Positions 402-64,000 are shown, counted from the stretch's first letter. The stretch: 64,000 nt of DNA from Chiloscyllium plagiosum (GCF_004010195.1 NC_057749.1:8903787-8967786), one strand, 5' to 3'. Notes: generated by a model not told the origin, from the sequence alone. Numbers and translations are program-made.

Positions 402-1141
402 TCAGCGAAGATGTTCTCCAAGTCTGGGGCACCCCCGCCTGAAGCAGACACAGTGAGGTGGAATATTGCAACGTTAAATTTGTAAGAGTTTGAGTAATAT
501 CTCCCAGCTTTGCTGAGCCCAAGGATCTGATGTGAAATGAATATGAGGGTGCCATGCCCTTATTTGGCAAAAATTCACAACTTGCCTCGATAAGGGGAAG
601 TGGAAACGCTGCATTGGTACAGAAGTGAGTTTTCACAGAGGTTCAGCTTATGAGACTTTGTTAGGACAGAAAACAGGAAGTTCAGTCTTGTCTTCCCAGC
701 ACACGGACAGAGTACATGGCGCAACAGGTCCATGCCTGGTTTCATCGCACATTTTTAGAGAAGAGATCCAAATGCGCAAAATCTGTCTTGAGGCGACACT
801 TCACTTCAGGATTCTTATAATGATCGATTCATCAGAGAGCTGGTTGAGAGTTTCATACATCGCCACATACATTCACACACACATAAAACATACACTGACA
901 GGCATGCACGCACATGGACATTTATAAATATACAAGCAGGCCAGCTCTATATGTACACAAGTGTACGCATGTACATTAGTATGTGTGTATATTTAGTCCA
1001 ACAGGCTTATTTGGAAGCTCTAGCTTTCGGAGCACTGCTCCTTCATCAGCTACCTGAGAGAGTGGCCCCCCAGTCCTCTGGGACGATGGTGACTTCACAG
1101 TCAAAGCATCCACTGAGAGTCCTCAGTGTCACTTTGCTATT

Positions 1142-1508
1142 AGAATCATAGAGATGTACATCATGGAAAGAGACCCTTCGGTCCAACTCGTCCATGCCGA
1201 CCAGATATCCCAACCCGATCTAGTCTCACCTGCCAGCACCCGGCCCATATCCCTCCAAACCCTTCCTATTCATATACCCATCCAAATGCCTCTTAAATGT
1301 TGCAGTTGTACCAGCCTCCACCACTTCCTCTGACAGCTCATTCCATACCCGTACCACCCTCTGTGTGAAAAAGTTGCCCCTTAGGTCTCTTTTATACCTT
1401 TTCCCTCTCACCCTAAACTTATGCCCTCTAGTTTTGGACTCCCCGACCCCAAGGAAAAGACTTTGCCTATTTACCCTATCCATGCCCCTCATAATTTTGT
1501 AAACCTCC
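1142..1508 (-). mobile_element. CR1/HER1-type LINE 3' end
   Basis: YKIMRG...TRGHKFRVRG...FFTQRVVRVWNEL...FKRHLD on the minus strand. Confidence 0.9.
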
Positions 1509-1957
1509 TGGTGTTCTTCACAGTTCAGCCTTCTTCGGAGAGTGGATATGAGAGTGTGGTGCTGGAAAAGCACAGCAGGTCAGACAGCATCCGAGGAGGA
1601 GAGAATCAACATCTCGGGCATAAGCCCTTCATCAGGACCAGGGCTCCAATCTCCAGCATCTGCAGTCCTCATTTTCTCCCTGTGTGTATATTTATAAATA
1701 TATTACACACACCTATGCACGGACACGCATCCACTCACACACACATACGTATTTGATACACATGAGGAAACATCAGTAGTAAGTAATGATGCTCGTTCGA
1801 AGATCCAGGGCAGGTAGATGGGCCAAATAGCCTCCTTCTGTGTGCTGCGTGATTCCATGACATGCACACACACAAAGGGATTCATCCACTCATGTATACA
1901 ATGAGAAAAGCAACGATTATAATTGTAAAAGAGGCACAGAGAGGTTGTGAATAGTGG

Positions 1958-2371
1958 AAAGTTAAAAATCACACAACACCAGGTTATAGTCCAACAGGTT
2001 TAATTGGAAGCACACTAGTTTTCGGAGTGTCGCTCCTTCATCAGGTGTTAGTGGAGGGCTCAATCCTAACACACAGAATTTATAGCAAAAGTTTTGTGAT
2101 TTGCACATGAAGAAGTGAAACTATCACGGTATTCTAACAGATGAAAGGCTTAACAGACAATCAATTTTTCAATGTATAATTTCAGTTACATCACACTGTA
2201 AATTTTTGCTATAAATTCTGTGTGTTAGGATTGAGCCCTCCACTAACACCTGATGAAGGAGCGACGCTCCGAAAACTAGTGTGCTTCCAATTAAACCTGT
2301 TGGACTATAACCTGGTGTTGTGTGATTTTTAACTTTGTACACCCCAGTCCAACACCGGCATCTCCCGAATC
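1958..2371. mobile_element. Young foldback Penelope-like insertion with 12-bp target-site duplication
   Basis: Inverted arms 1958-2090 and 2204-2336 (133 bp, 1 mismatch), flanked by direct repeat GTGAATAGTGGA at 1947-1958 and 2372-2383. Confidence 0.8.
2246..2282 (+). ncRNA. Hammerhead motif, third PLE family (inverted twin at 2012-2048)
   Basis: ACAC-CTGATGA-A-GGAGC-gac-GCTCC-GAAA-ACTA-GTGT; related copies at 1021-1049 (-) and about 2660-2690 (+) carry the palindromic GAAAGCTA. Confidence 0.65.
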
Positions 2372-5300
2372 GTGAATAGTGGAGGCAACGTGGGTTAAAG
2401 TCAGGTGTGAACTGAAAACAGAAGCAGAAGAAACCGGTCAGTATCCTGAGGCAGGAACTGTGGTGCAACTCTCTCCCCTCAGAATGGTGCCAGTGAACCA
2501 GCATCCCTCTCCCTGACACTCTCACATCCACTCTCTGAAGAAGGCTGAACTGTGAGGAACAACAACAATAGCAGAGTGACATTGAGGACTCCCAGTGGAT
2601 GCTTTGACTGTGAAGTTACCATTGTCCTAGAGGACTGGGGGGGCTACCCTCTCAGGTAGCTGATGAAGGAGCAGCACTCTGAAAGCTAGTGCCTCCAAAT
2701 AAATCTGTTGGACTGCAACCTGGTGTTGTGTGATTTTTAACTTTGTCCACCCAAGTCCACAACTTTAGAGAGGGAGAGAGAGACAGACGACTGATGATGC
2801 TTTTACCTGAGGGTAAAAGTTGAAATGAAAATTCTTCATGGTAACATCAGCTGCGACGGGAATTGAATCCACACAAACCAACCGTCCAGCCGACTGAGTT
2901 AACTGACCCCTAACTCTGGCTATACTGTGCCAAGGGGCAGAGTGCCAATGTAAGGGAGAAAGATATCTTTGGAAGTCTCATTGCTCTCTTGTTTTAGAAG
3001 CCAGGTTTGCTTGAAGTTCAAGCCTGTCTTTATCGGTACCTTCACTGGTAAGGTTTGTCACTGTTATCTCTGATTTAATTACATCCAATCAGTACCTAAT
3101 TATTGAGTTTCTTTGTGCACCATAGAGCAATACAGCACGGTAAAGAAACATCTTATCTTTGTTGGTGACACTGTTTACACTGCATTAGAACATTACGGGT
3201 TTCAGGCCCAGGGTCCATGACTTGCCTGGCCAATCGAGTTACCTCAACCAGTAACCCCTATAAGAAAAAGACATTCGCTGACTTGAGTCTGGGCGATTTG
3301 CAGGGCAACTCTGGTTAGGTGACTGCTGGGAAATCTCATCATGTGACATCCTTCCTCCACACTTCTCTACCCCCCCAACACTCACTATTGGGCACTCAGT
3401 TTGGTGCGTTGGATTTGTACGGCCAATCTAAAAGTGACCGAACACTTGGATGATGCATACAATTGGGTGAAGCATCTCTGTCAGTCAAACTGCCTTTGAA
3501 ACTCATTAAAGGGACAGAAGGAGGCCATTGAACCCATTGAGATTATGCTGACTCTCTGCAGAGTCACCGAGTCAGTCCCATTGCCCCTATAGTATTTCAA
3601 GCTTCTTCTCTTGATCAATCATCCCATTCTCTTTTGAAATCCCTAAAAATCTCATTTAACCTCTCCACTTCTGTCTAACTTCTGAACAAAAGTAAATGAT
3701 TAAAAAAGGGAACACAGTTTTGTTCTATTGCCCAATGATTTTTCTCCTGCGTCTCTCCCAGCAGTTTCTTGGTTTTCATTTTCTGGGTAACTGTGGGTGG
3801 TTGATGACACTCAGTGCCTGAACTGGCGGCCACCCCCACTTCGAGGTAGTTCAGTTCTCAGAATTTTTTTAAGTGGAAGCTTTTCATTCGAGAAAACACA
3901 TTTGAGATGTGAAAATGTTGTGTGTGAGCAAGTCAACTTTTTGTTTTCGGTGCTGGAAATGCGGCTTCTGTGGTTTGCTTCATTGTGATATTTACACTAT
4001 TTCTTACTGCCCGTGTCCTTAATGACCTAATGTGACTGCCACTTCATTTCAGAAGTTTCAAGGAAGTTCTCCTGTGGTTGGAAGTCAATACAGTACCGCG
4101 CACTGATAACAACACTGAAAGACAGTGAAATCTTCAGCCTGGAATAAGGGGCGCTAAGACTAGGATCTGTGGTCCCATGATCAATGAGTCAAGCAACTAT
4201 GGAGATTTTGGGGACCTCAAATCTTGACATTTTATGTATTTCCTTCACTGTGTTTGAAAGACATGCAAAGTCACGGATTTCTGTCTTGCACCCATTAGAG
4301 CTGAAACCCAAGTATTTCAAGGGACTGGGGGTTCAACTGTGGTCGGCATGGAAACCTTAATTAACTGGTTAAACTGAAACCAGACCAGTCAACTCTGATT
4401 AGTCAGGGCATTTCCGTTGGGATTGGGAGTTTCCACATTGCTTTGTCCAGGTGGGCTTGATGCTACAGGGTTGGAATTAGATCTGCAATGTTTTGTGTTA
4501 AATAGCCCAGAGAATGCAGGGAGTGTGGCTTAGCTACTCAACTGTCAGAGGCATCGCCGATGAGCCAACATGTGCGTGTCCAACATTGCATCCCAAATAT
4601 CGCTGCAAACTTTCTTCATGTGCGTACAATGATTCAGTTTAAAAGATATTTGGATGGATACATGAAGAGGAAAGGTTTGGAGGCATATGGGTCAGGAGCA
4701 GGCAGGTGGAAGTAGTTTACTTTGGGATTGTGTTCGGCATGGACTGAAGGGTGCGTTTCCGTGCTATATGAAACAATGTGTCAGGCAATACCCTTTTCGA
4801 TGCTGACTGATGTTTTCAAACTACAACCTGAATACTTGAGCACACAACCCAGGCTGGTGTGGTATTGAGCAAAATGTGCACAGTTGGAAATGTCACCTTC
4901 TGCACAAGGTGTTAAACCGAGGCCCAGTCTGTCCTAGAAAGATCGAAAACAGGAGCAGGAGGAGGCCATTCGGCCCAACCAGCCTGCTCTCCATCCAACT
5001 CTGTTCCCGCTTTCTCCCCATGCTCTTTGATCCCTTTAGTCCGAAAGAACTAGACCTAACTCCTTCTCAAAAACATTGTATGTTTTGGCCTCAGCTGCTT
5101 TCTGTATTACACACCAAACCCCCAAGGTTAAAGAAGAGTCAGCTGGTCTCCCTAGTATTCTGAGCACTATTTTTCGTTTAACCACTTTGATTTGATTTGA
5201 TTTGATTATTATCAGATGAAGAGATGGAGTGAAAAGGATTATTTTGCATGCTATCCAGGCAAATTATGCCTTGTATAAGTACATCACAGTAATAGAGAAT

Positions 5301-9072: not shown

Positions 9073-10065
9073 TCATGTCTCACAAAACTTGATTGAGTTT
9101 TTTGAAGAAGTAACAAAGAAGATTGATGAGGGCAGAGCAGTAGATGTGATCCATATGGACTTCAGTAAGGCATTCGACAAGGTTCCCCATGGGAGACTGA
9201 TTAGCAAGATTAGATCTCATGGAATACAGGGAGAACTAGCCATTTGGATACAGAACTGGCTGAAAGGTAGAAGACAGAGGGTGGTGATGGAGGGTTGTTT
9301 TTCAGACTGGAGGCCTGTGACCAGTGGAGTGCCAGAAGGATCGGTGCTGGGCCCTCTACNNNNNNNNNNNNNNNNNNNNNNNNNNNNNNNNNNNNNNNNN
9401 NNNNNNNNNNNNNNNNNNNNNNNNNNNNNNNNNNNNNNNNNNNNNNNNNNNNNNNNNNNNNNNNNNNNNNNNNNNNNNNNNNNNNNNNNNNNNNNNNNNN
9501 NNNNNNNNNNNNNNNNNNNNNNNNNNNNNNNNNNNNNNNNNNNNNNNNNNNNNNNNNNNNNNNNNNNNNNNNNNNNNNNNNNNNNNNNNNNNNNNNNNNN
9601 NNNNNNNNNNNNNNNNNNNNNNNNNNNNNNNNNNNNNNNNNNNNNNNNNNNNNNNNNNNNNNNNNNNNNNNNNNNNNNNNNNNNNNNNNNNNNNNNNNNN
9701 NNNNNNNNNNNNNNNNNNNNNNNNNNNNNNNNNNNNNNNNNNNNNNNNTTCCCTGGGGTTGGGGAGTCTAGAACTAGAGGGCATAGGTTTAGGGTGAGAG
9801 GGGAAAGATATAAAAGAGACCTAAGAAGCAACTTTTTCACACAGAGGGTGGTACGTGTATGGAATGAGCTGCCAGAGGATGTGGTGGAGGCTGGTACAAT
9901 TGCAACATTTAAGAGGCGTTTGGATGGCTATATGAATAGGAAGGGTTTGGAGGGATATGGGCCGGGTGCTGGCAGGTGGGATGAGATTGGGTTGGGATAT
10001 CTGGTCGGCATGGACGGGTTGGACCGAAGGGTCTGTTTCCATGCTGTACATCTCTATGACTCTAC
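9073..10065 (+). mobile_element. Young CR1/HER1 LINE, RT to 3' end, spanning a gap
   Basis: NLIEFFEEVT...DFSKAFDKVPH...SGVPEGSVLGP RT motifs before the gap, ORF2 tail after it. Confidence 0.92.
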
Positions 10066-11200: not shown

Positions 11201-12204
11201 TAAGTTTAACAACATGCTCTGAAGTGGGAATTGAGAGTGCTACTCTGACTTCACTGGAACAGCTCCAAAAGATTAACATCTTCAACCCATCCACATTATT
11301 TAGCATTTATTCTGCACTAATAAAACCCTATCGATTTCAACCTCCCTTATTGTAACAGGGCATGGATTTATAGGCGGCATAGGTCAAAGTTCAAGGCACC
11401 AGGCTGTTTAACTGAGGACAGACTGTCATTTGTAGTTTTGGAGGATGCAGAGCTGGTGTTGTCAGCATCACTGCACAGTTATCTGCACGATAAACCGGTG
11501 TTAATATTTAATCAGAGGCAGCATTTATCTGACAGTATTGTGGAGCTCCTTTGGGCTCACTCACCTGTGTAACAACAGTCAGATTGGTTGCTTCAAGTGA
11601 AAATTCTTGAGAAAGCATTTCAGCACAGGAAGGGCTCTATCTGTACAAATGTTTGTTCAGTTCCGACACTGGAACACGGTGGAAAGTTAGGTCAGTCGAT
11701 CTGAAATCCAGCCCCGATTTACCGAGCTCAGCTCTATTTAAACAGCTGCTCAGTGACAATAGCCTGCGCTTATTCAACAGCATGAACAGAGTAACTCAGT
11801 CTTTCCCAAACTGTTTCCCACTGTCACCCCTCTGCCAAACTTGAAAATTGCTGAGACTCAATCAGTGAAAGGTAGAGGAATGGCAATGTGGGGTTGAGAG
11901 TCATAGAGGTCTACAGCCCAGACAAACGTTCTTCAGCCCATTACTGATCAACAACAATGCCCTCTCTGTTCTAACCCCATTCCCCAGCACCTAGCCCATA
12001 GCCTTGTATACCTTGGCATCTAAAGCACCTACCTAAATATTCCTGAATGTTTCTGCCTCTCCCACCCTTACAGGAAGCGAGTTCCAGATTCCCACCACCC
12101 TCTGGGGGGAAAAGTTCTTCCTCACCTCCCCCTCTAAACCCCCAGCCCCTTCCCTTAAATCTATGTCCCTCGGGCATTGATCCCTCAGTCAAGGGGAAAA
12201 GGTG

Positions 12205-12710
12205 CACAGCATTTCAACTCCCCCTCCCACTCCACCGAGGATATGCAGGTCATTGGACTCATCCACCGCCAAACCACAACAACCCGACGGTCGGAGGAGG
12301 AGCGTCTTATCTTCCGACTGGGAACCCTCCAACCGCAGGGGATGAACTTGGACTTCACCAGTTTCTTCATCCCCCCTCCCCCCACCTTGTCTCAGCCGGA
12401 TCCCTCCAGCCCGGCACCGCCTTCCTGACCTGCAGTCTTCTTCTTGACCTCTCCGCCTCCATCCTACTCCGACCTATCACCCTCACCTTGACCTCTTTCC
12501 ACCTATCACATTTCCAACGCCCCTCCTCCAAGTCCCTCCTCCCTACCTTTTATCTTCTCCTGCTGAACACTCTCTGCTCATTCCTGAAGAAGGGCCTGTG
12601 CCCGAAACGTCGAATCTCCTGTTCCCTGGATGCTGCCTGACCTGCTGTGCTGTTCCAGCAATAAAGTTTCAACTTTGATCTCCAGCATCTGCAGACCTCA
12701 CTTTCTCTCC
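12205..12710 (+). mobile_element. Penelope-like element 3' end: GIY-YIG endonuclease C-terminus plus pseudo-LTR
   Basis: AQHFNSPSHS...RRSEEERLIFRLGTLQPQGMNLDF matches the PLE endonuclease tail pattern (HF..H...R...E...I..L.T..P.G.N), followed by a C-rich tract and the repeat end seen in many other copies here. Confidence 0.85.
12580..12615 (+). ncRNA. Minimal type I hammerhead ribozyme motif in PLE pseudo-LTR
   Basis: ATTC-CTGAAGA-A-GGGC-ctgt-GCCC-GAAA-CGTC-GAAT: stem I ATTC/GAAT, CUGANGA box, stem II, GAAA box, GUC cleavage triplet, palindromic ACGT stem III. Confidence 0.8.
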
Positions 12711-15700
12711 GAAAAGGTTGATCCTGTCTGCCGCTCATACATTTTGTACGTCTCAATCATTTTATACCTGTCAGTCTCCTCTGCCCTAAGGAAACAACCC
12801 CAGTATGTCCAATCTCGCTTCATGACTGAAACTCTCCAGCGCAGGCAACACCCTGGTAGGTCTCCCTCTCACATCCCAAGGATAATGTGGATTGCGAAAA
12901 CAGTGCACACACCACCCACCCCCTTCCCGTGACCACCTTCTGCCCCCAAGTGTAACAGAGCCTGAGGTGGCTCCATCGGTCTGTACAGCCACCTACACAC
13001 TCAACGCTGAGAGTGGGTGAGTGTCATCCCCGTGATGATGATAATGACAATGTGAGAGGGGAGAGGAGGAGTGGGACGAACAGAACTCCATAACCGCCTC
13101 TGAACTCAAACTTCCAGCTCGCGACAGCCACCTGGGCACCCTCCCCCCACGGGGGCGGCGTGAGCAGGGTGGAATTCCAGGCCATCCCCTCCATTCTGAA
13201 CCCCTCCTCCTGCCCGCCTGAGCATTTATAGGAAACGGCCTCATTGGGTGCCCCCTGAAAGGTGGAGGCAAGGGGCTGAAAAATTGCAGTCAGGGCAGAG
13301 GGAAGCTCATCTGGACAGACATACAGCTTCCCCCCAACACCCGTCACCCAACAAACCCGCAACAATAGAGGCAACATTCAGCTACAGTTCTAATGGAAGA
13401 TACCCCATCAGCCCCCCGAACCAGATTAGGGTTTCTACATTCACTGTGTATCGCAGGAGCCAAACTGTCCTTGCTCCTTGCAGGCGGGGTTTTGTGCTTG
13501 ACCTGCTGCTGTGACCAGTAGCAGTAGGCCGAAATCTCGCCAGTAGGCCGAAATCTCCCCAACGATCGCCTTCTGTCCTCAGCTATCAGTGGATTGATTA
13601 GGCAGCCTCAAGGGGCACTTATTGATGACGTTAACAAACAATGGAAATTCTAACCTTCACATCAAACTGTCAGACCAGCTGATTAATTGCGAGCTGAACT
13701 TGTTGCACAGTATAATAGCCCTTTCAGCTACTGCCTTGCGATGAGCATTTGGCCATTAAATAGCATAATGTAAAAATTAACAGCAAAAAAATGTCTGCGC
13801 AAAAAAGATGTGGCCTTAAATCATACAGTATAACAAATCGCATTTACATAGAGCCTTTGATATAGAAACATACAGCACAGAAACGGACCCTATGGTCCAA
13901 CCAGTCCATGCCGACCATAATCCCAAACTAAACCAGCCCCACCTGCCTGCACGTGGCCCATATCCCTCCAAACCTCTCTTATTCATGTATTATCCAAATG
14001 TCTTTTAAACGTTGTTTCTGTACCCACATCCATTAATTCCTCAGGATGTTCATTCCAGATACAAACCATCCTCTGTGTAAATATGTTGCCCCTTACGTCT
14101 TTTTAAAATCTTTCTCCTCTCGCCTTAAAAACAAACTTGACACTGAGCCGCATATGTAGTCCCCAAAGAAGCAGGTTTTTAGTATGTTGTCGGTCAGGTT
14201 GCGCTGCTCAGGAATATTTACGCAGTCTCCTGAGGTAAAGGATGGATTAACGCTATTTAAGAAGCATTGTCCCATAGCTTTATGTTACCGTGAGGCTGCA
14301 GAACATGCGTATGACATTGCATCACTTCCTGTGATGGTGTATACTGTGTCATATTTGCATATCATACAATCAGACCTAAGGCATATCCTAGGGAACATCT
14401 TAAAGAAGGACTATGAGATGAAATGGCTCAGAGGTTTGGTGGTGGGGGGGGGTGAGGGGTGTGTGGTGGTAGGCATGTGAGTGACTTCATCATCATTTGT
14501 TCATGAGATGTGATGTCACTGGCTAGACTACCATTCATGGCCCAGAGAGGGGTTAACTGTCACTAATATTCACAGGTAGAGTCACAGATTCCCTTCTCTA
14601 AAGGACACTATTGAACCAGATGGGCGTTGGTTGGCCTCAGTTGGTTGGATGGTGTTGCAAAGTGATGTTTAGTAGAGTGGGTTCAATTCCCACACTGGCT
14701 GGAGTTACGTCTCCTTCTCAACCTCCCCCTCACCTGAGGCATGGTGACCCTCGGATTAAGCCACCACCAGTTGTCTCTCTCTCTAATGAGGGAGCAGATC
14801 TAGTAAGACTTTGGTGGCTTCACCTTTTTTGTTAGTGAACCAGATGGATTTTTGTTTGCAACAGTTGATGTTGGTTACATGGTTGCCCCGAGACTAGCTT
14901 TCCATCCCAGATTTTTATTGAATTCAAGTGTCCGCGTTTGCCATGTCTGGGATTCGAACCCACATCCTCAGAAGATTAGCCTGAGTTCTGGGTGACTAGT
15001 CCAGTAGCGTGACCGCTACGCTAGCACCTCCCCCTGGCTGAATTCCAGAGTTGAGGGTATGGTCACCAATGCTGCCTCAGGATGCTCAGAGGCCTGACTG
15101 GAGGGAAAGGAAGATCCCAGAAGGTTGTGGCGATGCAGTAAGTTACAGAAAGAGGGAAAGGGTCAAGACCCTGGAAGGAATTGAAAAGAAGAATGCAAAA
15201 GTTGAGGCATTGCTTAAATGCAAATAAGGCACGGGGCACACGAGGATGGCGAACAGGACATGGTATGAGTTCAATAGGAAGGAACATAGGAGCAGGCATA
15301 GGCCACTCAGCCCTTCAAGCCTGCTGTGCTGTTCTAAATCATGGCTGATCATTACCATCATGTTACCACACTATCCCCATCTCCCTCGATGACATTTTTG
15401 TCACTGCCCCATTAGAGGCTGTGCCCTCCTGCTGCCAGTCACCTCCTTGACTCTCTACCCCTTTGACATTTACCTATCCTGATGTGTCAGAAAGTGTTGG
15501 AGAAACTCAGCAGGTCTGCGGAGAGAAAGAAGAACAGGGCTTCGGTTGGACGAAGAGCCAGGCTGGACTCGAAACATTAACTCTTGTTTCTCTCCCCACA
15601 GATGCTGCCAGAACTACTGAGTTTCACCAGCAATTTCTGTTTGTGTTTCCAATTTCCAGGGTCTGCAGTATTTTGCCTCTTCATGCGGTTTGGAGTCAAA

Positions 15701-15715
15701 TTGCGTCGTTGACCA

Positions 15716-17185
15716 AAAACAGAAATTGCTGGAAAAGCTCAGCAGGTCTGGCAGCAGCTGGTGGAGAGAAATCAGAGTTAGCGTTCCAGGACGAGTGACC
15801 CTTCCTCAGGACAGACTCTGACGTGACACCACCCACACCCTGCACCTTCTCCATGACTTTCGTTTGCCCGCGCCCCCATAACACTTCACCTTCACCATGG
15901 ACATCCAGTTCCTGCGCACATCCATCGCCATGGCAAAGGCCTCCAAGCTCTCGGTTTATTCCTCTCTCGCCGACCAAACCTGTACCCTTCCACCGACACA
16001 CTCATGCAATTGGCAGAACTGGTCCTCACCCTCAACAATTTCTCCTTCACATCCTCCCACTTCCTTCAGACCAAAGGAGTAGCAATGGGCACCCGCATGG
16101 CCCCCAGCTATGCCTGTCTCTTTGTCGGGTACGTGGAATAGTCCACCTTCCACAGCTTCACCTGCACCATTCCCCACCTTTTCCTCTGCTACATTAATGA
16201 CTGTATTGGTGCCACGTCGTGCTCTCACAAGGAGGTTGAACAGTTCATTGACTTCACGAACACCTTCCATCCTGACCTCAAGTTCACCTGGACCACCTTG
16301 GGTACCTCCCTCCCCTTCCTGGACTTCTCCATCTCCATCTCTGAGACCAACTTCACTCAGATATTTCCCCTCCCATGTGATCAACAATGCCTCGAGTGCA
16401 CTTCCTCCACTTTTGCACCCCACCCCTCCAACCGCAACAAGGACAGAACCCCCCAGCCCACCCCCCAGTCCTCATCTTCCACCCCGTCATTCTCTCTTTA
16501 CAGCACATCATCCTCTGCCACATCTGCCACCTTCAGTCAGACCCCACCACCAGAGATATATTTCCCTATCTGCATTCTGCAGAGATCATTCCCTCCCCGA
16601 CTCCCTTGTTAGGTACATGCCAACAACCCCCCCCCCTCCCCCACAGACNNNNNNNNNNNNNNNNNNNNNNNNNNNNNNNNNNNNNNNNNNNNNNNNNNNN
16701 NNNNNNNNNNNNNNNNNNNNNNNNNNNNNNNNNNNNNNNNNNNNNNNNNNNNNNNNNNNNNNNNNNNNNNNNNNNNNNNNNNNNNNNNNNNNNNNNNNNN
16801 NNNNNNNNNNNNNNNNNNNNNNNNNNNNNNNNNNNNNNNNNNNNNNNNNNNNNNNNNNNNNNNNNNNNNNNNNNNNNNNNNNNNNNNNNNNNNNNNNNNN
16901 NNNNNNNNNNNNNNNNNNNNNNNNNNNNNNNNNNNNNNNNNNNNNNNNNNNNNNNNNNNNNNNNNNNNNNNNNNNNNNNNNNNNNNNNNNNNNNNNNNNN
17001 TTAACCCAACCCCACCCCCATCTATTTATCTTTCAGCCCCCTTCCCCCTCCATATATTCGATGAAGGGCTTATGCCTGAAATATCAATTCTCCTTCTCCT
17101 TGGATGCTGCCTGACCTGCTGTGCTTTTCCAGCACCACACATTTCAACTCTGACTCTCCAGCATCTGTAGTCCTTACTGTCTTTC
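15716..17185 (+). mobile_element. Decayed Penelope-like element: inverted pLTR, RT remnant, gap, pLTR
   Basis: About 15990-16345 reads LAELVLTLNNFSF...QTKGVAMGTRMAPSYACLF...YINDC...HPDLKFT...LPFLD (PLE RT motifs GxAMG, YIDD-like, FLD) with an in-frame TAG; pLTR-type sequence follows the gap at about 17055-17185. Confidence 0.85.
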
Positions 17186-17204
17186 AGAACAGACTTGACT
17201 ACTA

Positions 17205-17868
17205 GATGTAAGTTTGCTCACTGAGCTAGAAGGTTTATTTTCAGACGTTTCGTCACCATACTAAGTAATGTCATCAGTGAGCCTCTGGTGAAGCATTGAT
17301 AGTATGGCCCACTTTTTATTTGTGTGCTTAGGTTTCCTTGGGTTGGTGATGTCATTTCCTGTGGTAATGATTTCCTGTTCTTTTTCTCAGGGGGTGGTAA
17401 ATTGGATCCAGTCAATGTGTTTGTTGATAGAGTTCCAGTTGGAATGCCATGTTTCTAGGATTTCTCCCATGTGTCTCCTTTTGGCTTGTCCTAGGATGGA
17501 TGTGTTGTCCCAGTTGAACTGTTGACACCACTTTGACTGGGACAATTCATCCATCCGAGGACAAGCCAAATAGAGACATGTGCGAGAATTCCTAGAAGCA
17601 TGGCACTCCAACCGGACCTCTATCAACAAACACATTGACTTGGACCCTGTTTACCACCCCCTGAGAAAAAGAACAGGAAATGATATCACCAACACAAAGA
17701 AACCTAAATGCATAAATAGAAAGTAGGCCATACCACCAGTGCTTCACCGGAGGCTCACTGAAGATGTTACCCATTATGGTGACGAAACATCTGAAAATGA
17801 ACCTTGCAGCTCAGCGAGCAAATTTACATCCAGAACCTCAACCTGAGCTACAAATCTTCTCAAAACTC
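17205..17868. mobile_element. Foldback Penelope-like element (two inverted 3' ends)
   Basis: Arms about 17205-17518 and 17532-17830 are reverse complements; each encodes FDWDN.SI.GQAK..H.REFLEAWHS...SINKHIDLDP, a PLE endonuclease tail. A further fragment lies at about 63728-63845. Confidence 0.8.
17755..17794 (+). ncRNA. Decayed hammerhead motif, fourth PLE family (inverted twin at 17241-17280)
   Basis: TCA-CTGAAGA-T-GTTACC-cattat-GGTGAC-GAAA-CATC-TGA; the minus copy retains GAAACGTC. Confidence 0.6.
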
Positions 17869-17889
17869 AATAAGACTTTGATTACTTTA

Positions 17890-20246: not shown

Positions 20247-20272
20247 GGCTAGCTAGCAGATCATTGCTATCC

Positions 20273-20311
20273 AGTTCTGAAGAAGAATCAGCTAGACTCG
20301 AAACGTTAACT
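20273..20311 (+). ncRNA. Hammerhead motif, second PLE-derived family
   Basis: AGTT-CTGAAGA-A-GAATC-agcta-GACTC-GAAA-CGTT-AACT; 4-bp stem I, one stem II mismatch, GUU triplet. Confidence 0.6.
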
Positions 20312-23074
20312 TGTTCTGTCTTCACTGTGATCTCCAGGACTTTTTGTTTCTATTACAGATTCAGTCATCTGCAGTAGTTTGCTCCTTATTTATTGCCCAT
20401 CCCTAGTTGTCCAGAGGAGGTTTAACCAAGGATGGCAGTATTTATGTGGAGAGAGAAAAACACCGAGTTAACATTTCAACCCTGATGTGTCTCTTCTTCA
20501 TAGTTTTGCAATCGTCAACGTTAACTCTGTTCCTGTCTCCAGAGCTGTGTCCAGATACTCCATTCCTCATAGACACAACCAGACCTGCTGAGTGTCTCCA
20601 GCAATTTCTGTCTTTATGCCTGATTTCCAGCGTCCGTAACATTTGACTTTTATAAAAGCGAGCCACGTTGCTATGGGTCTGGAGTCACCTGTAGGCCAGA
20701 CTGGGTAAGGACGGCAGTTTCCTTCCCTAAAGGACATTGGGGAACCAGATGGGTTTTTGCAACAGTTGCAATTAAGCTACCACTTCATTTAATTCCAGAC
20801 TTTTTGTTTTAAAAGTTGAATTTAAATTGCACCATCTGCCCAGGTGAGATTTGAGCCCAGGTCCCTTGAATGTTATTGGGTGTGGGGGGGGAGGGATTCA
20901 GAATTTCGTGCCGAACAGTATATGGGCAGCTATTGCAATGCAGTGAGGTTACACTGAAACCTAAATGGTTGTCCGTGGTAGCTGGAACCAGTGATGTGAT
21001 TGGCTCCAATGGTGAGTTTGCACCTGTGCAGCTGATGTCACTGTATTCTGTGCGTGATGATGTCAGCACCAGTACATGGGCAGGCTGCCCAGCTTTAGAG
21101 AATCAGTCCTTGAAAGAGCCCACCCCACCCTTTCCTGTCCCAGTGGTTTTCTCTCATGTTTTCCCCCAGTGTTTCCGGGAGTGGGGAACTCGGTCGCCTG
21201 TACCAGGCGCCCACCCCACTCTGCCCCGTCTCCCCTGCAGCAACATTGTGCTGCTCCCAGTCATGTTAGTGTGCACACTGTGATCCAATAGAATTCCTAC
21301 AGTACGGAAACAAGTCATTTGGCCTAAGTCCACACCGAGCCTCTGCAGACTATCCCACCCAGACCCGTACCCTAGTACTCTACATTTCCCCCTGACTAAT
21401 GCACCTAACCTACACATCCCTGAACATTATGGGTAATTTAGTATGGCCAATCCACCTAACTACACATCTTTGGACTGTGGGACAAAACTGGAGCACCCAA
21501 AGAAAACCCATGCAGACGCGGGGAGAATGTGCTAACTCCACACAGAGATAGTCACCTGAGGCTGGAATCGAACCTGGGTCCCTGCGCTGTGAGGCAGCAG
21601 TGCTAACCATCGAGCCTCAGCATCACCCCTCCTCTTTCAAGCGATCCGACAACCATGTTAAACAATCCCTGATTTGGAAACTGAAATAAAAACAGAATCT
21701 AGGTAACTGACAAAAGGTCAATGAAAACTGAGTAAATCAAGATAATATTGATGCGTCTCAGTCCCTGCAGTGCTAAAAATCTCTCCGTTCCAAGCCCCAG
21801 TGTGTCCTGCTAATTTTGTTTTCTTATTAGCATATCCTATTCAATGCGCTATGCAGCAAGCTCTGGAGAAACTCAACAGGTCTAAGCAGCATCCGTGCAG
21901 TGAGAAAGTTAATGTTTTGAGTCCAGTTTGACTCTACTTCAGTTCTGAAGAGGAGCCATGCAACACTAACCCTGTTTTTCTCTCCACAGATGCTGTCACA
22001 GACTTGCTGAGTTTCTCTACCGCTCTTTTTTGTGTTTGTTTCAAATATCTGACACACACACACACACAATATCTTGCTTTGGTTCATCTCTGGATCACAG
22101 GCAGCTGAATAAGTCGTATTAGCCCTGTGAATCCTGGTCTTTCCTTTTATTGGGGGTGCCCCTTTACCGGTGTTTACGATGCCCGGTGCAGCATGGGCGA
22201 CAGTTGTCCATGGTAATGGGTTCCTGAGCTTAGCCAAGGATGTTCACTTAAGAAGGCTTCATTCAGTAAGACTGCGGTAGGTCGCTACAGAGTTCTCAAT
22301 CACTTCCTGCCCCCTCGCATGTGGCAGCACAGATGTTTATCAGCTGTGCAAGGCTGAGGGATTTGTCCCTGTTTCAATGTTTGCAACAGCTTTGTCTGAC
22401 AGGCCTATTACTTTCCATTCAACCTCTGTAAATTCAATCAACATTCCCAAAGTGACAAAGCGGCCTGGCTAATATAAACCATTTGAAGTTTATTTCAACG
22501 TCGGAGCTAATTAAATTTCCTCCTTTCTCACTGCTAATCTGTTAACAAATTTCCTTACACACCGCTGCATTGATTTCCGCACACCTTCTTAAATTCACAC
22601 CGACTCACGCGATGTTTGATTTTTGGGTGCGTCATTCCAGACGGTTCCCCTTCACAGGCGATGGGAATGAGGGTGGCATTTTGTGGCTTTTGGGTGTGGT
22701 GTTGGCCAGTGCACAGCATGATCCCATCACCCTTTAGATTAGATTCCCTACAGTGTGGAAACAGGCCCTTCGGCCCAACAAGTCCACACCGACCCTCTGA
22801 AGAGTAATCCACCCAGACCCATTTCCCTCTGACCATTGCACCTCACACTATGGACAATTTAGCATGGCCAATTCACCAGCACATTTTGGACTGTGGGAGG
22901 AAACTGGAGCACCCGGATGCACTTTACAACAGACCTCCCCTGACTTGGGGCAACCAGATAGGTTTTCTGGGGTCATGTGGCCTTTGATTCTTGCCATCTT
23001 TGACGAGTGGAATTGCCCACAGTGAGGAGCGCAAGCAGATAACCTCTCTTCACAAAGTCATATAGCACAGCTAA

Positions 23075-36199: not shown

Positions 36200-36770
36200 T
36201 AGTACTGAACCAAACAGACTGCAGCCTTCCAGATAATACAGACTGAACTAATCAGAGCAGAGAGCTCTATACAACAATGAGCCAATCAGACCAATGCACC
36301 CTGGCTAGTATTAAACCAATCCGACTGGAGAATTCCAAATGTTACTGACTCAGTCAAACTAGAGGATTCCAGGTGTATAAAATTAACTAATCAGTTTCTG
36401 GGTGATATTGACTTATACCAGAATAACAGCTCCCAAATAGTAATGAGCCAATAAGACTGAAGGATCCCAAGTGATAATGAGTAACTTGATGGGAAGAACC
36501 CTTAGTCATAATGGCCCAGTGAGATTGGAGAATTCATGTTGATAATGAGCCAATTTGACTGGAGGATTTCAGTTGATAATGAGCCAATCAGACTGGAGGA
36601 TCCTAATGGATAATGAGCCATGAAGATTCCATTTGATATTGAGCCAGTCAGACTGGAGGTTTCTGGGTGATAATGAGCTTATCAGACAGGTGAATTCTAG
36701 GTGATAAGGAACCAATCAGACTCTAGGTGCTTTGAGCCAATCAGACTGGAGAATTGTAGAGGTACTGAGC
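36200..36770 (+). repeat. Degenerate minisatellite with core ATAATGAGCCAATCAGACTGGAG, related to the 39.3-kb array
   Basis: Repeated AGCCAATCAGACTGGAG variants at roughly 35-40-bp period. Confidence 0.85.
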
Positions 36771-37799: not shown

Positions 37800-39160
37800 G
37801 TCACAAAGTCATAGGCACAGAAACCGACCCTTATGCCCAACCAGTCTGTGACGAACATAATCCCGGAATAAACAAGTCCTTCCTACCTGCCTGCTCCGAG
37901 CCCATATCCTTCCAAACCGTTTTCCTTATGTACTTATCCAAATGTCTTCTAAACATTGTACCCACGTCCGCCACTTAGAGTCATAGAGATGTACAGCATG
38001 GAAACAGACCCTTCGGTCCAACCTGTCCATGCCGACCAGATATCCCAACCCAATCTAGTCCCACCTGCCAGCACCCGGCCCATATCCCTCCAAACCCTTC
38101 CTATTCATATACCCATCAAAATGCCTCTTAAAGTTGCAATTGTACCAGCCTCCACCACTTCCTCTGACAGCTCATTCCATACACGTACCACCCTCTGCGT
38201 GAAAATGTTGCCCCTTAGGTCTCTTTTATATCTTTCCCTTCTCATCCTAAACCTATGCCCTCTAGTTCNNNNNNNNNNNNNNNNNNNNNNNNNNNNNNNN
38301 NNNNNNNNNNNNNNNNNNNNNNNNNNNNNNNNNNNNNNNAACTCCTGTACTCAATACTCTGACCAATAAAGGAAAGCATAACAAATGCCTTCTTCACTAT
38401 CCTATCCACCTGCGACTCCATTTTCAGGGAGCTACGAACCTGCACTCCAAGGTCTCCTTGTTCAGCAACACTCCCTAGGACCTTACCATTAAGTCCTGCT
38501 AAGATTTGCTTTCCCAAAGTGCAGCACCTTGCATTTACCTGAATTAAACTCCATCTGTCACTTCTCAGCCCATTGGCCCATCTGGTCCAGATCCTGTTGT
38601 GATCTGAGGTAAGCCTCTTCACTGTCCACTACACTTCCAATTTTGGTGTCATCTGCAAACTTACTAACTGTACCTCTTATGCTCGCATCCAAATCATTTT
38701 TGTAAATGACAAAAAGTAGAGGACCCAGCACTGATCCTTGTGGCACTCCACTGGTCACAGGCCTCCAGTCTGAAAAACAACCTACCACCACCACCCTCTG
38801 TATTTTACCTTTGAGCCAGTTCTCATTCCACACACAAACTACTCTCTGTGTAAAAGAGTGGCCCCACCTGTTTTTTATAAATCTCTCTCCTCTCACCTTA
38901 AAAATATGCCCCCTAGTCTTGAAATTCCCCATCCTACCACTAATGTGATTAACTCTACCAATAGCCCACATTATTTTATAAGCTTCTATAAGGTCACCTC
39001 TCAACTTGCTATGTTTCAGTGTAAAAGTTCTCTCTCCATCCAGCCTTTCTTTATTACGCAAACCTTCTGTACCTGGTAATGTCCTGGTCAATTTCCTCTG
39101 AACCCTGTCCAGCTTAATAATATCCTTCCTATAAGTGGGTGACCAGAACTGGACACCTTG
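37800..39160 (-). mobile_element. Nested CR1 LINEs (younger copy about 37976-38821 inside an older one)
   Basis: SGVPQGSVLGPLLF...KFADDTK in the inner copy; the older 3' end continues on both sides. Confidence 0.88.
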
Positions 39161-39284: not shown

Positions 39285-39808
39285 TAAGCCAGTCAGACTA
39301 GAGGATCCTGAGTGGGAATGAGCCAATCAGACTGGAGGTCCCGAGTGGGAATGAGCCAATCAGACTGGAGGTCCAGAGTGGGAATAAGCCAATCAGGCTG
39401 GAGGTCCCGAGTGGGAATGAGCAAGACTGGAGATCCCGAGTGGGAATGAGCCAATCAGACTGGAGGATCCTGAGTGGGAATGAGCCAATCAGACTGGAGG
39501 ATCCTGAGTGGGAATGAGCCCATCAGATTGGAGGTCCCGAGTGGGAATGAGCCAATCAGACTGGAGGATCCTGAGTGGGAATGAGCCCATCAGATTGGAG
39601 GTCCCGAGTGGGAATGAGCCCATCAGACTGGAGGTCCCGAGTGGGAATGAGCCAATCAGACTGGAGGTCCCGAGTGGGAATAAGCCAATCAGGCTGTAGG
39701 TCACGAGTGGGAATGAGCCAGACTGGAGGTCCCGAGTGGGAATGAGCCAATCAGACTGGAGGTCCCGAGTGGGAATGAGCCAATCAGACTGGAGGTCCCG
39801 AGTGGGAA
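39285..39808 (+). repeat. 33-bp minisatellite GAGTGGGAATGAGCCAATCAGACTGGAGGTCCC, about 16 units
   Basis: Read directly; 33-, 34- and 29-bp variants. Confidence 0.95.
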
Positions 39809-40623: not shown

Positions 40624-41805
40624 GTGAGGCTTGAGTGGAGACAACCCACACAGAGGGAGTGGCGGTAGCACAGCAGGAATGTCACTGATTCCAGAGGCCA
40701 ACCAGTTGTCCAGCCTGGGAAACGCAAGTTCAAATCCTGCTGTGGCAGCTGAGGGAATTAAAATTCAATTGATCAAAATTGGGAATTGAAAACTATTCTT
40801 GGTAAACTGTCGTTGATTGATTGTTGTAAGACAATCTATTTCGTTTATGTTTTGGGAAAGGAAGTCTGCTATCCTTACCCAGTCAGGCCGACATATGACA
40901 GCAGGCCCACAGCATTGCCATTGACCCTTAACTGCCCCCCCACCCCCGGAATGGCCCAGCAAGCCACTCAGCTCGTGGCGCAATTAGGGATGAGGAACAA
41001 ATGCTGGCCTTACCCATAATCCCACGAAATAACAGACCAATGTTAATCTGGTGTCCCATCAGGAGCAAAATGGTGATCTTTGGGAGGTGGGGGCGTGTGG
41101 TTCTAAATGGAGACCAACTCTTCAGCAGTCCATTGATACTGGAGACCGGGCTTGGATTAAATGGCCCTTCTAAAATATGGCGGGTGATTCGTGATCCATC
41201 ATACCATTTCCTCCCCACCAAATTATGCCCCCACCCCCAAAATAGTATTTTCCCTCCCTCTATTGCTGCTTTCACCTGACTTTATACAGACTTGATGGTT
41301 GGGTTTTGTCTTTGGTGATGATTGTTATTGATACAATCATCTTTCAGTCCCATATTGAAAATATCTCAGACCAGGGCCTCGGTCAGTCTTGGCAGTGACC
41401 CTCCCCAGCAGGCTCTTCAAGAAGTGAGGCCATTTCCTCACTGCCTCAGCTCATCCATCAAGATTAGCAACTTGGATGAGATTGGGTTGGCTGAAATCTT
41501 CACTCCCGCGGGGTCTGTATATTAATGCTGAGCTGACTTTGCATTTTTCCAATATCCCTTTAACTGCTGGGGGTGACTGTAACAGTGAGGAGAAACAGGA
41601 TGGTGAGCCAGTATTCCCCAAAAACTACCCTGCCCCAGCAGAAACCAATTCAAGCAGCACAGACATTGAGAACAGAATCAATAAATGTGAAGCTAGAAGA
41701 GCAGCACAGGTCAGACAGAATCCGAGGAGAGGGAAAGTCAATGTTTCGGGCCAAAATCTTTCATCAGGATACTGCCTGATCTGCTGTACTCTTCCAGCTT
41801 CACAG

Positions 41806-51462: not shown

Positions 51463-51493
<31 letters not shown>

Positions 51494-55433: not shown

Positions 55434-55632
55434 AAAAACAGAAATTGCTGAGGGATCTCAGCAGGTCTGGCAGCATCTGTTGACAGAAACAGACTCAACG
55501 TTTCAGGTTCAGTTCTGAGGAAGGGTCACTGGACCCAAAAGGTGAAATCTGTGTGTGTGTCTCTCTCTCTCTCTCTCTCCCTGCACAGATGCAGCCACAC
55601 CTGCTGAGTTTCTCCAGCAGTTTCTGTTTCTG
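55434..55632. mobile_element. Short foldback PLE-derived repeat (representative; similar at about 1550-1680, 8445-8640, 15490-15680, 20440-20650, 21860-22060, 35935-36110, 57285-57430)
   Basis: CTCAGCAGGTCTGGCAGCATC...GATGCnGCCAnACCTGCTGAG inverted pair enclosing a decayed CTGAnGAAGGG...GAAACG motif. Confidence 0.6.
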
Positions 55633-60800: not shown

Positions 60801-61504
60801 CACTTTTAAACATATCATTTTGTGGCTGGCACTGCAGCTCAGTGGTCGGTGGTGCTGTCCCACAGTATTGGGGACCTGGGTTTGATTCCAGCCTCGGGCA
60901 ACTATCTGTGTCAAGTTTACACACCCTTCTGTGGGTTCCTCTAGATGCTCCTGTTTCTCCCAGAATCCAGAGACGTGAAGGTTAGGTGGATTGGAGGGCT
61001 TCTGCCTGAAACGTTGACTCTCTTGCTTCACGGATGCTGCTTGACCTGCTGTGTTTTCCCAGCACCACACCCTTCGACATGGGAAATTGTCAGTTGTGTC
61101 CAGGGATGTGTAGGTTGCAGCACTACAGGTGTATGGTAGTGGAATGGGTCTGGGTGGGATGCTTTTCAGAGGGTCAATGTGGACTTGACGGGCTGAATGG
61201 CTTATTCCCACACCATTGGGATTCTATGAACAAGCACTGGCTTCCCAACGATGCCTACATTTCATGAAAGAAAGGAATTAACAAAATCTACCTGTCTCTT
61301 CCCATTGTAATCCCATTCTAACATTCAAAATCTTAAAAATACTATTAAAAGGTGCAAGATGGTCCGTTTTCTGGGAGATCATTCTGAGGATTTGCCACAC
61401 TTTGAGAAGAGTGCTTGGTTTAGCTGAGCTGGATGAACAATCAGGATAGGGATATGAATGGGAAAGCTTCAGAGGGGTATGGGCCAAATGCTGGCAAATG
61501 ATTT

Positions 61505-61812
61505 GTAGATTAGATTAGATTACAGTGAGGAAACAGGCCCTTCGGCCCAACAAGTCCGACACCGACCCGCCGAAGCGCAACCCACCCATTCCCCTACATT
61601 TACCCCTTCACCTAACACTACAGGCAATTTAGCCTGGCCAATTCACCTAACACACACATTTTTGGATTGTGGGAGGAAACCAGAGCATCCGGAGGAAACC
61701 CACGCAGACACGGGGAGAATGTGCAAACTCCACACAGAGAGTCGCCTGAGGCGGGAATTGAACCCGGGTCTCTGGCACTGTGAGGCAGCAGTGCTAACCA
61801 CTCTGCCACCAC
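61505..61812 (-). mobile_element. HE1-type V-SINE (young)
   Basis: Reverse complement of the above with a (TAGAT)n tail. Other - copies at about 5380-5675, 5935-6256, 10080-10405, 21290-21625, 22740-22920, 27280-27610, 46403-46740, 62165-62370, 62625-62925. Confidence 0.88.
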
Positions 61813-63845
61813 ATTGCCCATGGGAGTAGGTCTGATTGGAATATCTGGTTGGCATGGATGAGTTGCACCGAAGGCTCTGTTTCCATGCTGTATGACTCTG
61901 TGACAACTGACTACAATGCACAGTGATGCCACAGTGTGAGTTCAATTCCTGCACCAGCTGTTTGTTCCATCTCTCATGGGCATCAGTCGTTGGGCCCAGC
62001 ATTTATTGCCTGTCCCTACTTGCCCCACGAGAAGGTGATGGTGAGCTGCCTGATTGAACGGCTGCAGTCCCTGTGCTGAAATTAGACCCACAATGTCTTT
62101 AGGTAGGCCATTCCAGGATCTTGACCCAGCGACACTGAAGCTGAAGGATTCTCCTGGCAGGTCGCAGAATCCCTACATGGGGACAGAGGTCATTCAGCCC
62201 ATCAAGTCTGAACTGATCCTCTGAAGAGCATTCTACCTTGACCCAGCATCCCAAACCCTATCCCCCCAACACTGCATTTCCCATGGCTAATCCACTTAGC
62301 CGACACGTCCCTGGACACTACTGTCAATTTAGCACAGTCAACGCACCTAACCTGCACATCTTCGGACTCTCTCCTCACCTGAGGTGTGCTGACCCTCAGG
62401 TTAAAACACCACCAGTATTCACTGTCTAATGAGCGAGCAGACCTATTGTTTGGTAAGACTATGGTGACTTTACCTTTCCTGCTAATAAATGTTTCTAATT
62501 TCACTTTTACCACTTTTAAGTCCCCTCACATTGACACTTGAAAACGAATACTATCTGCACAAGGCGGTTCACTGCCACCATCTCAGAGTGAAGCAAAATG
62601 GGCAAGGAAGATCCTGGTGTCCTTACAGAGTGGAAACAGGCCATTCGGCCCAACAAGTCCACACCAACTCTCTGAAGAGTATCACACCCAGACTCGTCCC
62701 TCTCTACCCTGCATTTCCCATGGTTAACCTACACACCCCTGGATGCTATGGGCAATTTAGCATGGCAGGTCCATCTAACATACACATCTTTGGACTGTGG
62801 GAAGAAACCAGAGCACCCCCACCGGGAGAATGTGTAAACTCCACACAGACAGTCACCCGAGATTGGAATTAAACCTGGGCCCCTGGTGCTGTGAGGCAGC
62901 AATGCTAACCACTGAGCTATCGTGCTGGGCAAAAGGTGCATCTTTGTCTGTGTCGTTAGAACAAATGTAAATAAAATGTGCTCATTTTCTTCTGCAAGTT
63001 CAGTCCCGGACACATGGAGCCAGAACCAATGTGCTCTTGCTGCCTCCCAGTGGTTGATTTCAGGAACAGCAACTTGGAGGCAGCAGAGTTGTCAGGTGCA
63101 TACAGTACATAGGAACTGGTGGCAACAAAAGAAGCCTTTCAGCTCCTCTCATTCCTAACGAAGGGTGTTTCCCCGAAACGTCAACTGTCCTGCTCCTCAG
63201 ATGTTGCCTGGCCTCCTGTGCTTTTCCAGTGCCGCACTCTCGGCTCCGATCTTCAACATCTGCAGTCCCCACTTTCTCCCCTTACCTGTGGCAGCTCTTG
63301 GAAGAAGCTGGAGAAATTCGAGTCAGTCTAGGGGAAAGAGAAAAATAATTTGGTAAGGCTGTTTTCCGGTGGCCAATGAGCCAGGAAGATGAGATTTAAT
63401 CCCCGGGATTGTGCTCAACAATTATCAAATGAACTCACTTGCAAACATGAGTTAGGAAGGGCAGGCTTGCATTCTGCCTTTAGGTTAAATGATGCGGGAC
63501 TCTTTCTTTTAATTCATTCACAGGACATGCGAATCGCTGGCTGGGTCAGCATTTATTGCCCATCCCTCGTCCTTAAGAAGGTGATGATAAGCTGCCTCTT
63601 TGAGTCCTTCCAGTCCATTTGGAGTGGCTCAATGGTTAGTACTGCTGCCTCACAGCACCAGGGAGCCAGGTTTAGTTCCAGCCTCGGGTGACTGTCTGTG
63701 TGGAGTTTGCATGTTCTCCCTGTTCTGGATGTAAATTTGCTCACTGAGGCGGAAGGTTTGTTTTCAGATGTTTCGTGACCATATTAGGTAACATCTCCAG
63801 TGAGCCTCTGGACAATGTACTGGTGGCATGGCCTGATTTCTATTT

Positions 63846-64000
63846 AGGGAGAAAGTGAGGTCTGCAGATGCTGGAGATCAGAGCTGAAAATGTATTGCTG
63901 GAAAAGCGCAGCAGGTCAGGCAGCATCCAGGGAACAGGAGAATCGACGTTTCGGGCATAAGCCCTTCTTCAGGAACGAGGAAAGTTTGTCCAGCAGGCTA
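63846..64000 (-). mobile_element. Penelope-like pseudo-LTR running off the window end
   Basis: Near reverse complement of 12560-12710. Confidence 0.8.
63945..63972 (-). ncRNA. Hammerhead core in PLE pseudo-LTR
   Basis: Minus strand reads CTGAAGA-A-GGGC-ttat-GCCC-GAAA-CGTC; stem I is weak. Confidence 0.7.

Follow-up and report, generated by a model that had tools for sequence, protein, structure and literature searches.

Distribution of the motif in the window

The window analysed here is a 64-kb stretch of the Chiloscyllium plagiosum genome (G000:C40:8903787-8967786; genome 3.56 Gb, 101,977 contigs), interrupted by four N runs. It carries repeated copies of a short motif that we identify with high confidence as the minimal type I hammerhead ribozyme (min-HHR) of Penelope-like elements (PLEs). 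The motif contains, in order, CUGANGA, a single unpaired base, helix II, GAAA, a 4-nt palindrome that represents helix III (ACGU or AGCU), the cleavage base, and finally 3–4 bp of helix I. The window contains at least four lineages: families B and C, which follow open reading frames (ORFs) encoding a reverse transcriptase (RT) and a GIY-YIG domain, family D/E, a probable sister of B, and family A, which is probably non-autonomous.

A loose pattern, CTGANGAN{6,36}GAAA, matches the window 19 times, compared with a mean of 7.6 matches in 100 dinucleotide shuffles, none of which reached 19. A strict descriptor, which allows a single base after A9 and demands GAAA and a helix II of 4 bp or more, matches seven times (2250+, 2660+, 12584+, 17758+, 63972−, 2044− and 1049−) against 0.405 expected, the maximum in 200 Markov shuffles being three. 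This excess stems from repeat copies, not from independent origins. The full descriptor further requires that helix III be palindromic, that the cleavage base not be G and that helix I span 3 bp or more; only 12584+ satisfies all of its items, most other window loci being decayed. Sites 63972− and 1049− are near-intact, but their cis helix I is weak or absent. The extra base after A9 is present in all seven strict matches and in 69 of 69 full-descriptor matches from the window and the sampled loci, and a descriptor without it matched none of the real window sites.

When nhmmer profile searches built on genomic copies of families A, B and C are combined with the D site, the 64-kb stretch yields 22 motif loci, either intact or decayed (4 of A, 14 B-like, 3 of C and 1 of D), in line with a preliminary description of this DNA that had counted more than 15. 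Of the 14 B-like loci, two are well-kept B copies and six are decayed ones; the other six are of D/E type and were caught through a common downstream block. The CUGANGA and GAAA boxes and the non-G cleavage base are intact in the representatives of A, B, C and D, while many window copies have decayed, usually by CpG loss. Genome-wide sampling covered families A, B and C; the D sites come from the window.

Families B and C lie downstream of PLE open reading frames

Family B is represented in the window by the following copies.

12204-12707, plus strand: 5′-truncated PLE copy (tblastn, genomic copies, full descriptor)
63843-64000, minus strand: B copy leaving the window end; core 63949-63972; helix I of 2 contiguous bp (GAUU versus GUUC)
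15822-17190, plus strand: older B-like PLE copy (tblastn; nhmmer B profile, E = 1e-20)
1562-1637, minus strand: decayed B copy; CUGAUGA box intact; GAAACGUC now GAGAUGUU
35949-36027, minus strand: decayed B copy (nhmmer profile, sequence read)
41694-41777, minus strand: decayed B copy with an inverted copy of its own tail ahead of it (nhmmer profile)
60993-61062, plus strand: decayed B copy, 5′-truncated within the core (nhmmer profile)
63145-63229, plus strand: decayed B copy, core CTAACGA (nhmmer profile)

The two well-kept copies give profile matches at 12561-12658 (+) and 63898-63994 (−). The copy at 12204-12707 contains an ORF end (12204-12425), the HHR core (12584-12611), an AATAAA (12660-12665) and the element 3′ end (12707), with the predicted cleavage site between 12611 and 12612. 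Specifically, 12204-12425 encodes the last 74 residues of an RT and GIY-YIG ORF, 98.6% identical (tblastn) to P0002, a 673-residue protein from locus L061 that matches RVT_1 (E = 1.1e-8) and GIY-YIG (E = 5.6e-4) when the whole ORF is searched; its C-terminal 155 residues score 23.0 bits for GIY-YIG against a cut-off of 22.6. The B core begins 156 nt past the ORF stop. The older copy at 15822-17190 consists of an RT-coding remnant (15822-16613; 67% identity to P0002 over 166 residues, tblastn), an assembly gap (16649-17000), and a decayed HHR with tail (17054-17190; profile match 17054-17132).

A 496-bp B query returned 1,854 first-look candidates genome-wide. All 40 scored copies are 99–100% identical and end at query position 483-496, so the B lineage is very young. 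Among 28 oriented copies, 27 are 5′-truncated, at differing points, and two keep an ORF of more than 300 residues upstream of the core. A contig of run X1, which has a different species label, spans the whole B copy at 12204-12707 with two differences, and runs of three other species labels contain 0.48–0.85 of the sampled words of this copy; these could reflect closely related species or recent spread.

Family C has three copies in the window, with profile loci at 17735-17831 (+), 17205-17299 (−) and 63727-63824 (−).

17202-17577, minus strand: core 17248-17277, in the left arm of an inverted pair arranged head-to-head; one helix II mismatch; helix III ACGT
17473-17850, plus strand: right arm; core from 17758; helix III decayed to ACAT; 3′ end and tail
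63722-63846, minus strand: 5′-truncated copy directly after the B copy; core mutated to CTGGAGA

The right arm retains about 65 last codons of a GIY-YIG ORF (17472-17726, stop at 17724-17726), and the C core lies 31 nt past the stop. In addition, loci L075 and L076 have a GIY-YIG block (..AIYKIPCTNCSKHYIGQTGRKL..) upstream of the C core in the same orientation, scoring 19.5 bits (E = 0.0012), below the cut-off. Homology among C copies extends about 600 bp upstream, exact C cores number 2,323 genome-wide, and in the sampled copies a helix III of ACAT is far commoner than ACGT.

At 63722-64000 (−), B and C motifs share a strand, their cores separated by 171 nt, and a B 3′ end with tail runs straight into the 5′-truncated C copy. 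A second B/C abutment lies at 17190-17202. These abutments suggest PLE insertion into or beside PLE tails.

Families D/E and A

The D/E copies carry the downstream block of family B and match the B profile with E values from 3e-6 to 0.08. This tail homology points to a sister lineage of B that would likewise be of PLE origin.

20269-20315, plus strand: family D motif with core 20277-20303; one A-C mismatch in helix II (GAATC/GACTC); ACGT as helix III; U as cleavage base; AGTT/AACT as helix I
55455-55617, inverted arrangement: family D/E copies; plus-strand core from 55515; GAAA box decayed to AAAA
8451-8523, minus strand: decayed D/E-type motif (profile E = 0.082)
15549-15629 (plus strand) and 15729-15816 (minus strand): two decayed D/E-type copies (nhmmer profile)
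21863-21948, minus strand: decayed D/E-type copy (nhmmer profile)

Family A occupies the left end of the window, with profile loci at 994-1058 (−), 1969-2066 (−), 2228-2325 (+) and 2649-2733 (+).

1958-2066, minus strand: core 2020-2044, in the left arm of a long inverted repeat; helix III decayed to AACT
2150-2371, plus strand: right arm; core 2250-2274; helix I ACAC/GTGT; 3′ tail ends near 2371
994-1141, minus strand: copy with a different 5′ flank, 3′-truncated at 994; core 1025-1049; boxes intact, no cis helix I
2567-2760, plus strand: inverted counterpart of 994-1141; core 2660-2684; helix II weakened

The A unit is non-coding and about 0.55 kb long: in four full-length copies, homology extends from about 380–420 nt upstream to about 90–125 nt downstream of the core. 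No PLE ORF was found within 1.5 kb of these four copies, and ARAGORN, which looks for tRNA-like heads, found no tRNA genes in the four loci that carry them. The insertion hallmarks described below, rather than an ORF, suggest that A is a non-autonomous element of PLE origin. As candidates for its autonomous partner, nearby PLE ORF fragments occur in mixed orientations and at mixed distances, and none was identified as the partner. CA-rich low-complexity sequence precedes all four full-length A copies (L003, L025, L026 and L006), about 400–600 nt upstream of the core, which recalls the microsatellite insertion bias of some PLEs.

Helices I and II covary around fixed catalytic boxes

Helix pairs were compared from the descriptor parse; a MAFFT alignment of 23 representatives was set aside, family A being one column out of register in it. 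Between families helix II differs in sequence and always pairs: GGAGC/GCUCC in A, GGGC/GCCC in B, GUUACC/GGUGAC in C, GAGUC/GACUC in D and GGGUC/GACCC in E. It begins with G and ends with C in each of A, B, C and D/E; what stays fixed between lineages is the set of boxes, the additional base and the G-C pair that opens helix II. Helix III is ACGU or AGCU. Helix I measures 4 bp in D and in B's youngest subfamily; in A and C it measures 3 bp (TCA/TGA in C). The helix I of B (AUUC/GAAU) and that of D (AGUU/AACU) are two compensated pairs apart, and the C subfamilies CUCA/UGAA and CCCA/UGGA are one compensated pair apart.

Every stem named in the preliminary description is present, namely GGGC/GCCC at 12592 and about 63953 (minus strand), GGAGC/GCTCC at 2258 and 1029, GTTACC/GGTGAC at 17766, GAATC/GACTC at 20285 and GGGTC/GACCC at 55523, as are its spellings of helices I and III. 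Its further claim, a conserved core with compensatory stems, is borne out between families and also within B, where the genome-wide counts of helix II spellings are as follows.

GGGC/GCCC (consensus): 93,870 copies
GAGC/GCCC (single change): 1,535
GGGC/GCUC (single change): 1,235
GGGC/GUCC (single change): 1,579
GAGC/GCUC (compensated double): 546, against 20.2 expected under independence, 27-fold
GAGC/GUCC (uncompensated double): 48, against 25.8 expected, 1.9-fold

Helices I and II change by compensatory substitution while the catalytic boxes stay fixed.

Copies show PLE insertion signatures

PLE insertion units are described as 5′-truncated, often with an adjacent inverted 5′-truncated copy and an optional 30–40-bp tail (Craig et al. 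2021, PMC8557442), and the tail has been linked to a pair of RT start sites that lie internally, downstream of the HHR (Frangieh et al. 2024, PMC11167929). Copies of the families studied here show graded 5′ truncation. The short 3′ end is reached in 26 of 30 A copies, a further tail of 32–38 nt is present in 9/30, and 15 of 30 C copies have a tail of their own. An inverted partner lies upstream in 9/30 A copies (within 400 nt) and in 7/30 C copies (within 800 nt).

The first 100 listed A cores include 12 neighbour pairs less than 2 kb apart (10 head-to-head, one tail-to-tail and one on the same strand), and 76 of these cores are single, with no partner within 2 kb. In inverted pairs, the arms join upstream of the core at distances that vary between 4 and 289 nt. 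The hairpin-like structures at 1958-2371 and 17202-17850 are such head-to-head insertion pairs. Weak miRNA-like Rfam matches fall at 17480-17570 and 2035-2259; microRNA (miRNA) genes were rejected at both places, each being the centre of a PLE inverted pair.

The motif population is very large genome-wide

The pattern CTGANGANGN{8,24}CGAAACGT has 133,459 matches in the genome, compared with 90 for its reversed control, and the corresponding AGCT-type pattern has 32,237, compared with 13. At least 19,725 of the cores are exact A cores of one spelling, the 32,237 being of the generic AGCT type. Intact-box cores therefore total 165,696 (controls, 103), about 47 per Mb or one per 21 kb, and this count upholds the suggestion, made from the window, of a very large ribozyme-motif population. 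By our own reading of the motif sequences, the window contains four intact-box cores, so it is typical of the genome.

Published min-HHR counts stand near 9,000 for Xenopus tropicalis and near 4,000 for the coelacanth (PMC4209133); the descriptors are not identical, and comparison across surveys is rough. Up to 120,000 copies are given for the axolotl, in a section that treats canonical type I HHRs in tandem repeats (PMC7229834). We raise only tentatively, as something we would sooner doubt than assert, the possibility that the roughly 166,000 cores are the densest PLE min-HHR population yet counted, an order of magnitude over the top of the founding survey and sustained by an active or recently active PLE, to judge from its 99–100% identical copies and the near-identical copy under a second species label, together with the dispersed A element (at least 32,000 cores), which would spread as single and head-to-head copies and be a counterpart of animal retrozymes that resembles a short interspersed element (SINE). 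If true, the species is a natural system for asking about the in vivo role of PLE hammerheads.

RNA reads on the B copy

In X21, a poly(A) single-cell run with the same species label, 516 reads fall on 12204-12707, on both strands, 475 of them lying partly on the stretch with unlike flanks; run X22 has no reads on the B copy. In X21, 33 reads continue directly after 12674 into mostly A-rich unmatched sequence (loose-end consensus GGG followed by A's, agreement 0.62). Position 12674 is the boundary between the body of the B element and its last ~33 nt and lies downstream of the AATAAA, and it may be the poly(A) site of B-family transcripts.

Interpretation and alternative explanations

Taken together, the evidence makes it highly probable that these motifs are min-HHRs belonging to the 3′ ends or pseudo-long terminal repeats of endonuclease-containing (EN+) PLEs and to short elements without coding capacity that share their insertion machinery. 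According to the mechanism in the literature, two copies of the motif would base-pair at their ACGU or AGCU palindromes, giving an intermolecular helix III, the resulting double-hammerhead would cut after H17 (12611/12612 in copy B), and cutting would process multimeric or read-through PLE transcripts. That self-cleavage in vivo is the selected function is about an even bet.

Several results weigh against the identification or its functional extension. Origin from PLEs is direct for B and C, from their ORF ends; for A and D the derivation, which had been proposed for all families, is drawn from insertion hallmarks and tail homology without an ORF. Rfam hammerhead models give no match at the gathering score or among 17 hits at E up to 10, a silence that is probably due to the missing helix III hairpin. 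Helix I is short, 3–4 bp here and interrupted or absent in some copies, compared with 4–5 bp in PMC4209133; the ATTC/GAAT helix I of B has a U-U mismatch in the most abundant B subfamilies, and cis helix I is absent in two A copies (1049− and 2660+). Monomer folds of B and C recover helices I and II with z from +0.6 to −1.8, no better than shuffles. The 546 compensated doubles come mostly from one amplified subfamily and reflect few evolutionary events; they show one compensated lineage that was amplified, not many independent events. Finally, X21 shows no pile-up of read starts or ends, including at 12611/12612, and no back-joint, in a library ill-suited to cleavage, and low in vitro activity has been reported for min-HHRs (PMC4209133).

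The last two points also count towards the most serious alternative, a selected structure at PLE 3′ ends that has no self-cleavage role and serves, for example, in recognition by the RT or endonuclease or in positioning the RT start, with the boxes kept for binding or folding. The element 3′ ends, about 50–100 nt downstream of the motif and with an optional tail, have the geometry of the two internal RT starts of the Anolis PLE, and in that element HHR mutants have no effect on insertion in vitro and no reads end at the cut site (PMC11167929). The same source reports, however, that the Anolis HHR cleaves in vitro and that a C3G/G8C double mutant restores activity. Moreover, across A–D the 11 boxed core letters (CUGA, GA and GAAA) and the non-G H17 are constant, whereas the helices are free as long as they pair, a pattern unexpected of a protein-binding site. 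We regard this explanation as possible, with the odds clearly against it. That the hammerhead likeness is a side effect of abundant repeats, in which a small number of chance matches were amplified and no RNA structure is selected, is a far poorer account. The window excess does come from repeat copies, the fold energies do not exceed those of shuffles, and most copies decay freely, as in the change from ACGT to ACAT in most C copies; yet four lineages with unrelated helices agree in their boxes and extra base, in starting helix II with a G-C pair and in having a palindromic helix III, the compensated double exceeds expectation 27-fold against 1.9-fold for the uncompensated one, and the genome matches stand at 133,459 and 32,237 against 90 and 13 in reversed controls. 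We give it very little credence.

The arrangement of the copies bears on two further explanations. Family A might be an animal retrozyme without long terminal repeats, a tandem repeat whose units are freed by two hammerheads and circularised; the preliminary description had likened short copies to retrozymes. Family A is indeed short and non-coding, with one min-HHR per unit and at least 19,725 exact cores, and a preprint (10.64898/2026.07.22.740005) treats retrozymes as non-autonomous PLE derivatives. That preprint sampled one chondrichthyan, took tandem arrays as its criterion, and reports consensus sequences averaging 363 bp in Chondrichthyes. However, of the 15 tandem-repeat rows in the window not one overlaps an HHR; among the close pairs in the first 100 listed A cores, one of 12 is same-strand and 10 are head-to-head; the copies are dispersed insertions, 5′-truncated and with PLE tails; and the HHR is minimal, not the canonical loop-loop type that defines metazoan retrozymes (PMC7229834). 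The likeness is thus a loose one, limited to short length and lack of coding capacity, and we hold the retrozyme explanation to be improbable. Still less probable, indeed hardly to be entertained, is that the inverted pairs are fold-back DNA transposons or miniature inverted-repeat transposable elements, with long terminal inverted repeats that contain the motif by chance. The long hairpin-like inverted repeats at 1958-2371 and 17202-17850, with their weakly miRNA-like Rfam matches, and many opposite-strand motif pairs genome-wide about 40 bp apart speak for such an origin. Against it, most A cores are single (76 of the first 100 listed), the arm junction varies, the outer ends are retroelement 3′ ends with or without a tail, B and C continue into RT and GIY-YIG ORFs, and an inverted 5′-truncated neighbour is a described form of PLE insertion (PMC8557442).

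Min-HHRs of PLE 3′ ends and of their short non-coding derivatives remain our preferred explanation. The phenomenon is of a known kind and already published (Cervera and de la Pena 2014, PMC4209133); added here are the genome-wide counts, the compensation test within a family, the youth of the B lineage and the description of family A. A literature search in a limited collection returned nothing specific to Penelope elements or ribozymes in shark genomes. Published in vitro activity of PLE hammerheads is low, and catalytic mutants insert normally in vitro (PMC4209133; PMC11167929); for work on what these hammerheads do biologically, a very young, very abundant PLE with co-varied sister lineages supplies many natural 'mutants', as well as an active element with which cleavage, RNA ends and circular forms can be tested. 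For annotation, the motifs and inverted pairs should be masked as PLE 3′ ends and not reported as new ribozymes, miRNA-like hairpins or fold-back elements.

Other repeats in the window

Among 125 window ORFs of at least 88 residues, the sole Pfam match is an RVT_1 fragment at 38561-39160 (−), E = 2.7e-9, beside an assembly gap. It was rejected as a motif carrier, having no tblastn match to P0002, and probably belongs to a different retroelement class. An unclassified repeat of about 200 bp (75–95% identity) flanks the A copy at 994-1141, sitting at 1141-1350, and occurs at about 12 further places, such as 9857-10064, 37975-38182 and 34687-34885. A tRNA-derived SINE-like sequence (GGTTAGCACTGCTGCCTCACAGC.. 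type) at 63560-63720 (−) adjoins the C copy at 63722, and a similar one breaks an A copy in L008. Tandem arrays at 39287-39808 and 36441-36755 have a common unit, AGCCAATCAGACTGGAGG.., with a period of 33–34 and up to 15.9 copies, and are unrelated to the hammerheads.

Comparison with known systems

Family A resembles the schistosome elements Sm-alpha and Sj-alpha in being a short, high-copy, non-autonomous retroposon with a type I hammerhead; those elements have a canonical HHR and a promoter head (PMC6765202), whereas ARAGORN finds no tRNA-like head in the four loci with full-length A copies. Like animal retrozymes (PMC7229834; Li, Clavereau and Pollet 2026), A is a short non-coding HHR element that presumably relies on PLE enzymes and belongs to a kind that can reach very high copy number. 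Retrozymes are described, however, as tandem arrays with canonical type I HHRs and circular RNAs (PMC7229834), whereas A is dispersed or head-to-head and has a minimal HHR.

With the EN+ PLEs (Penelope/Poseidon and Neptune), the elements in the window have in common an RT followed by a C-terminal GIY-YIG domain, heavy 5′ truncation, an inverted neighbour, an optional tail, and an HHR near the 3′ end (PMC8557442, PMC11167929). The ORF of the Anolis element begins within the HHR (PMC11167929), whereas here the motif lies 31–156 nt past the stop of the preceding ORF.

The closest counterpart is the PLE min-HHR of PMC4209133. Helix II is shorter here, 4–6 bp compared with 7–8 bp in the Schistosoma families, and the scale is larger, 165,696 cores against the Xenopus and coelacanth figures given above. 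The boxes, the unpaired base between positions 9 and 10.1, the G10.1-C11.1 pair, and a palindromic 15.2-16.2 without loop 3 are common to both, as are several covarying consensus families per genome and the association with RT and GIY-YIG. Thousands of mostly solitary copies and opposite-strand pairs, 100–700 bp apart in that survey, likewise characterize both sets of elements.

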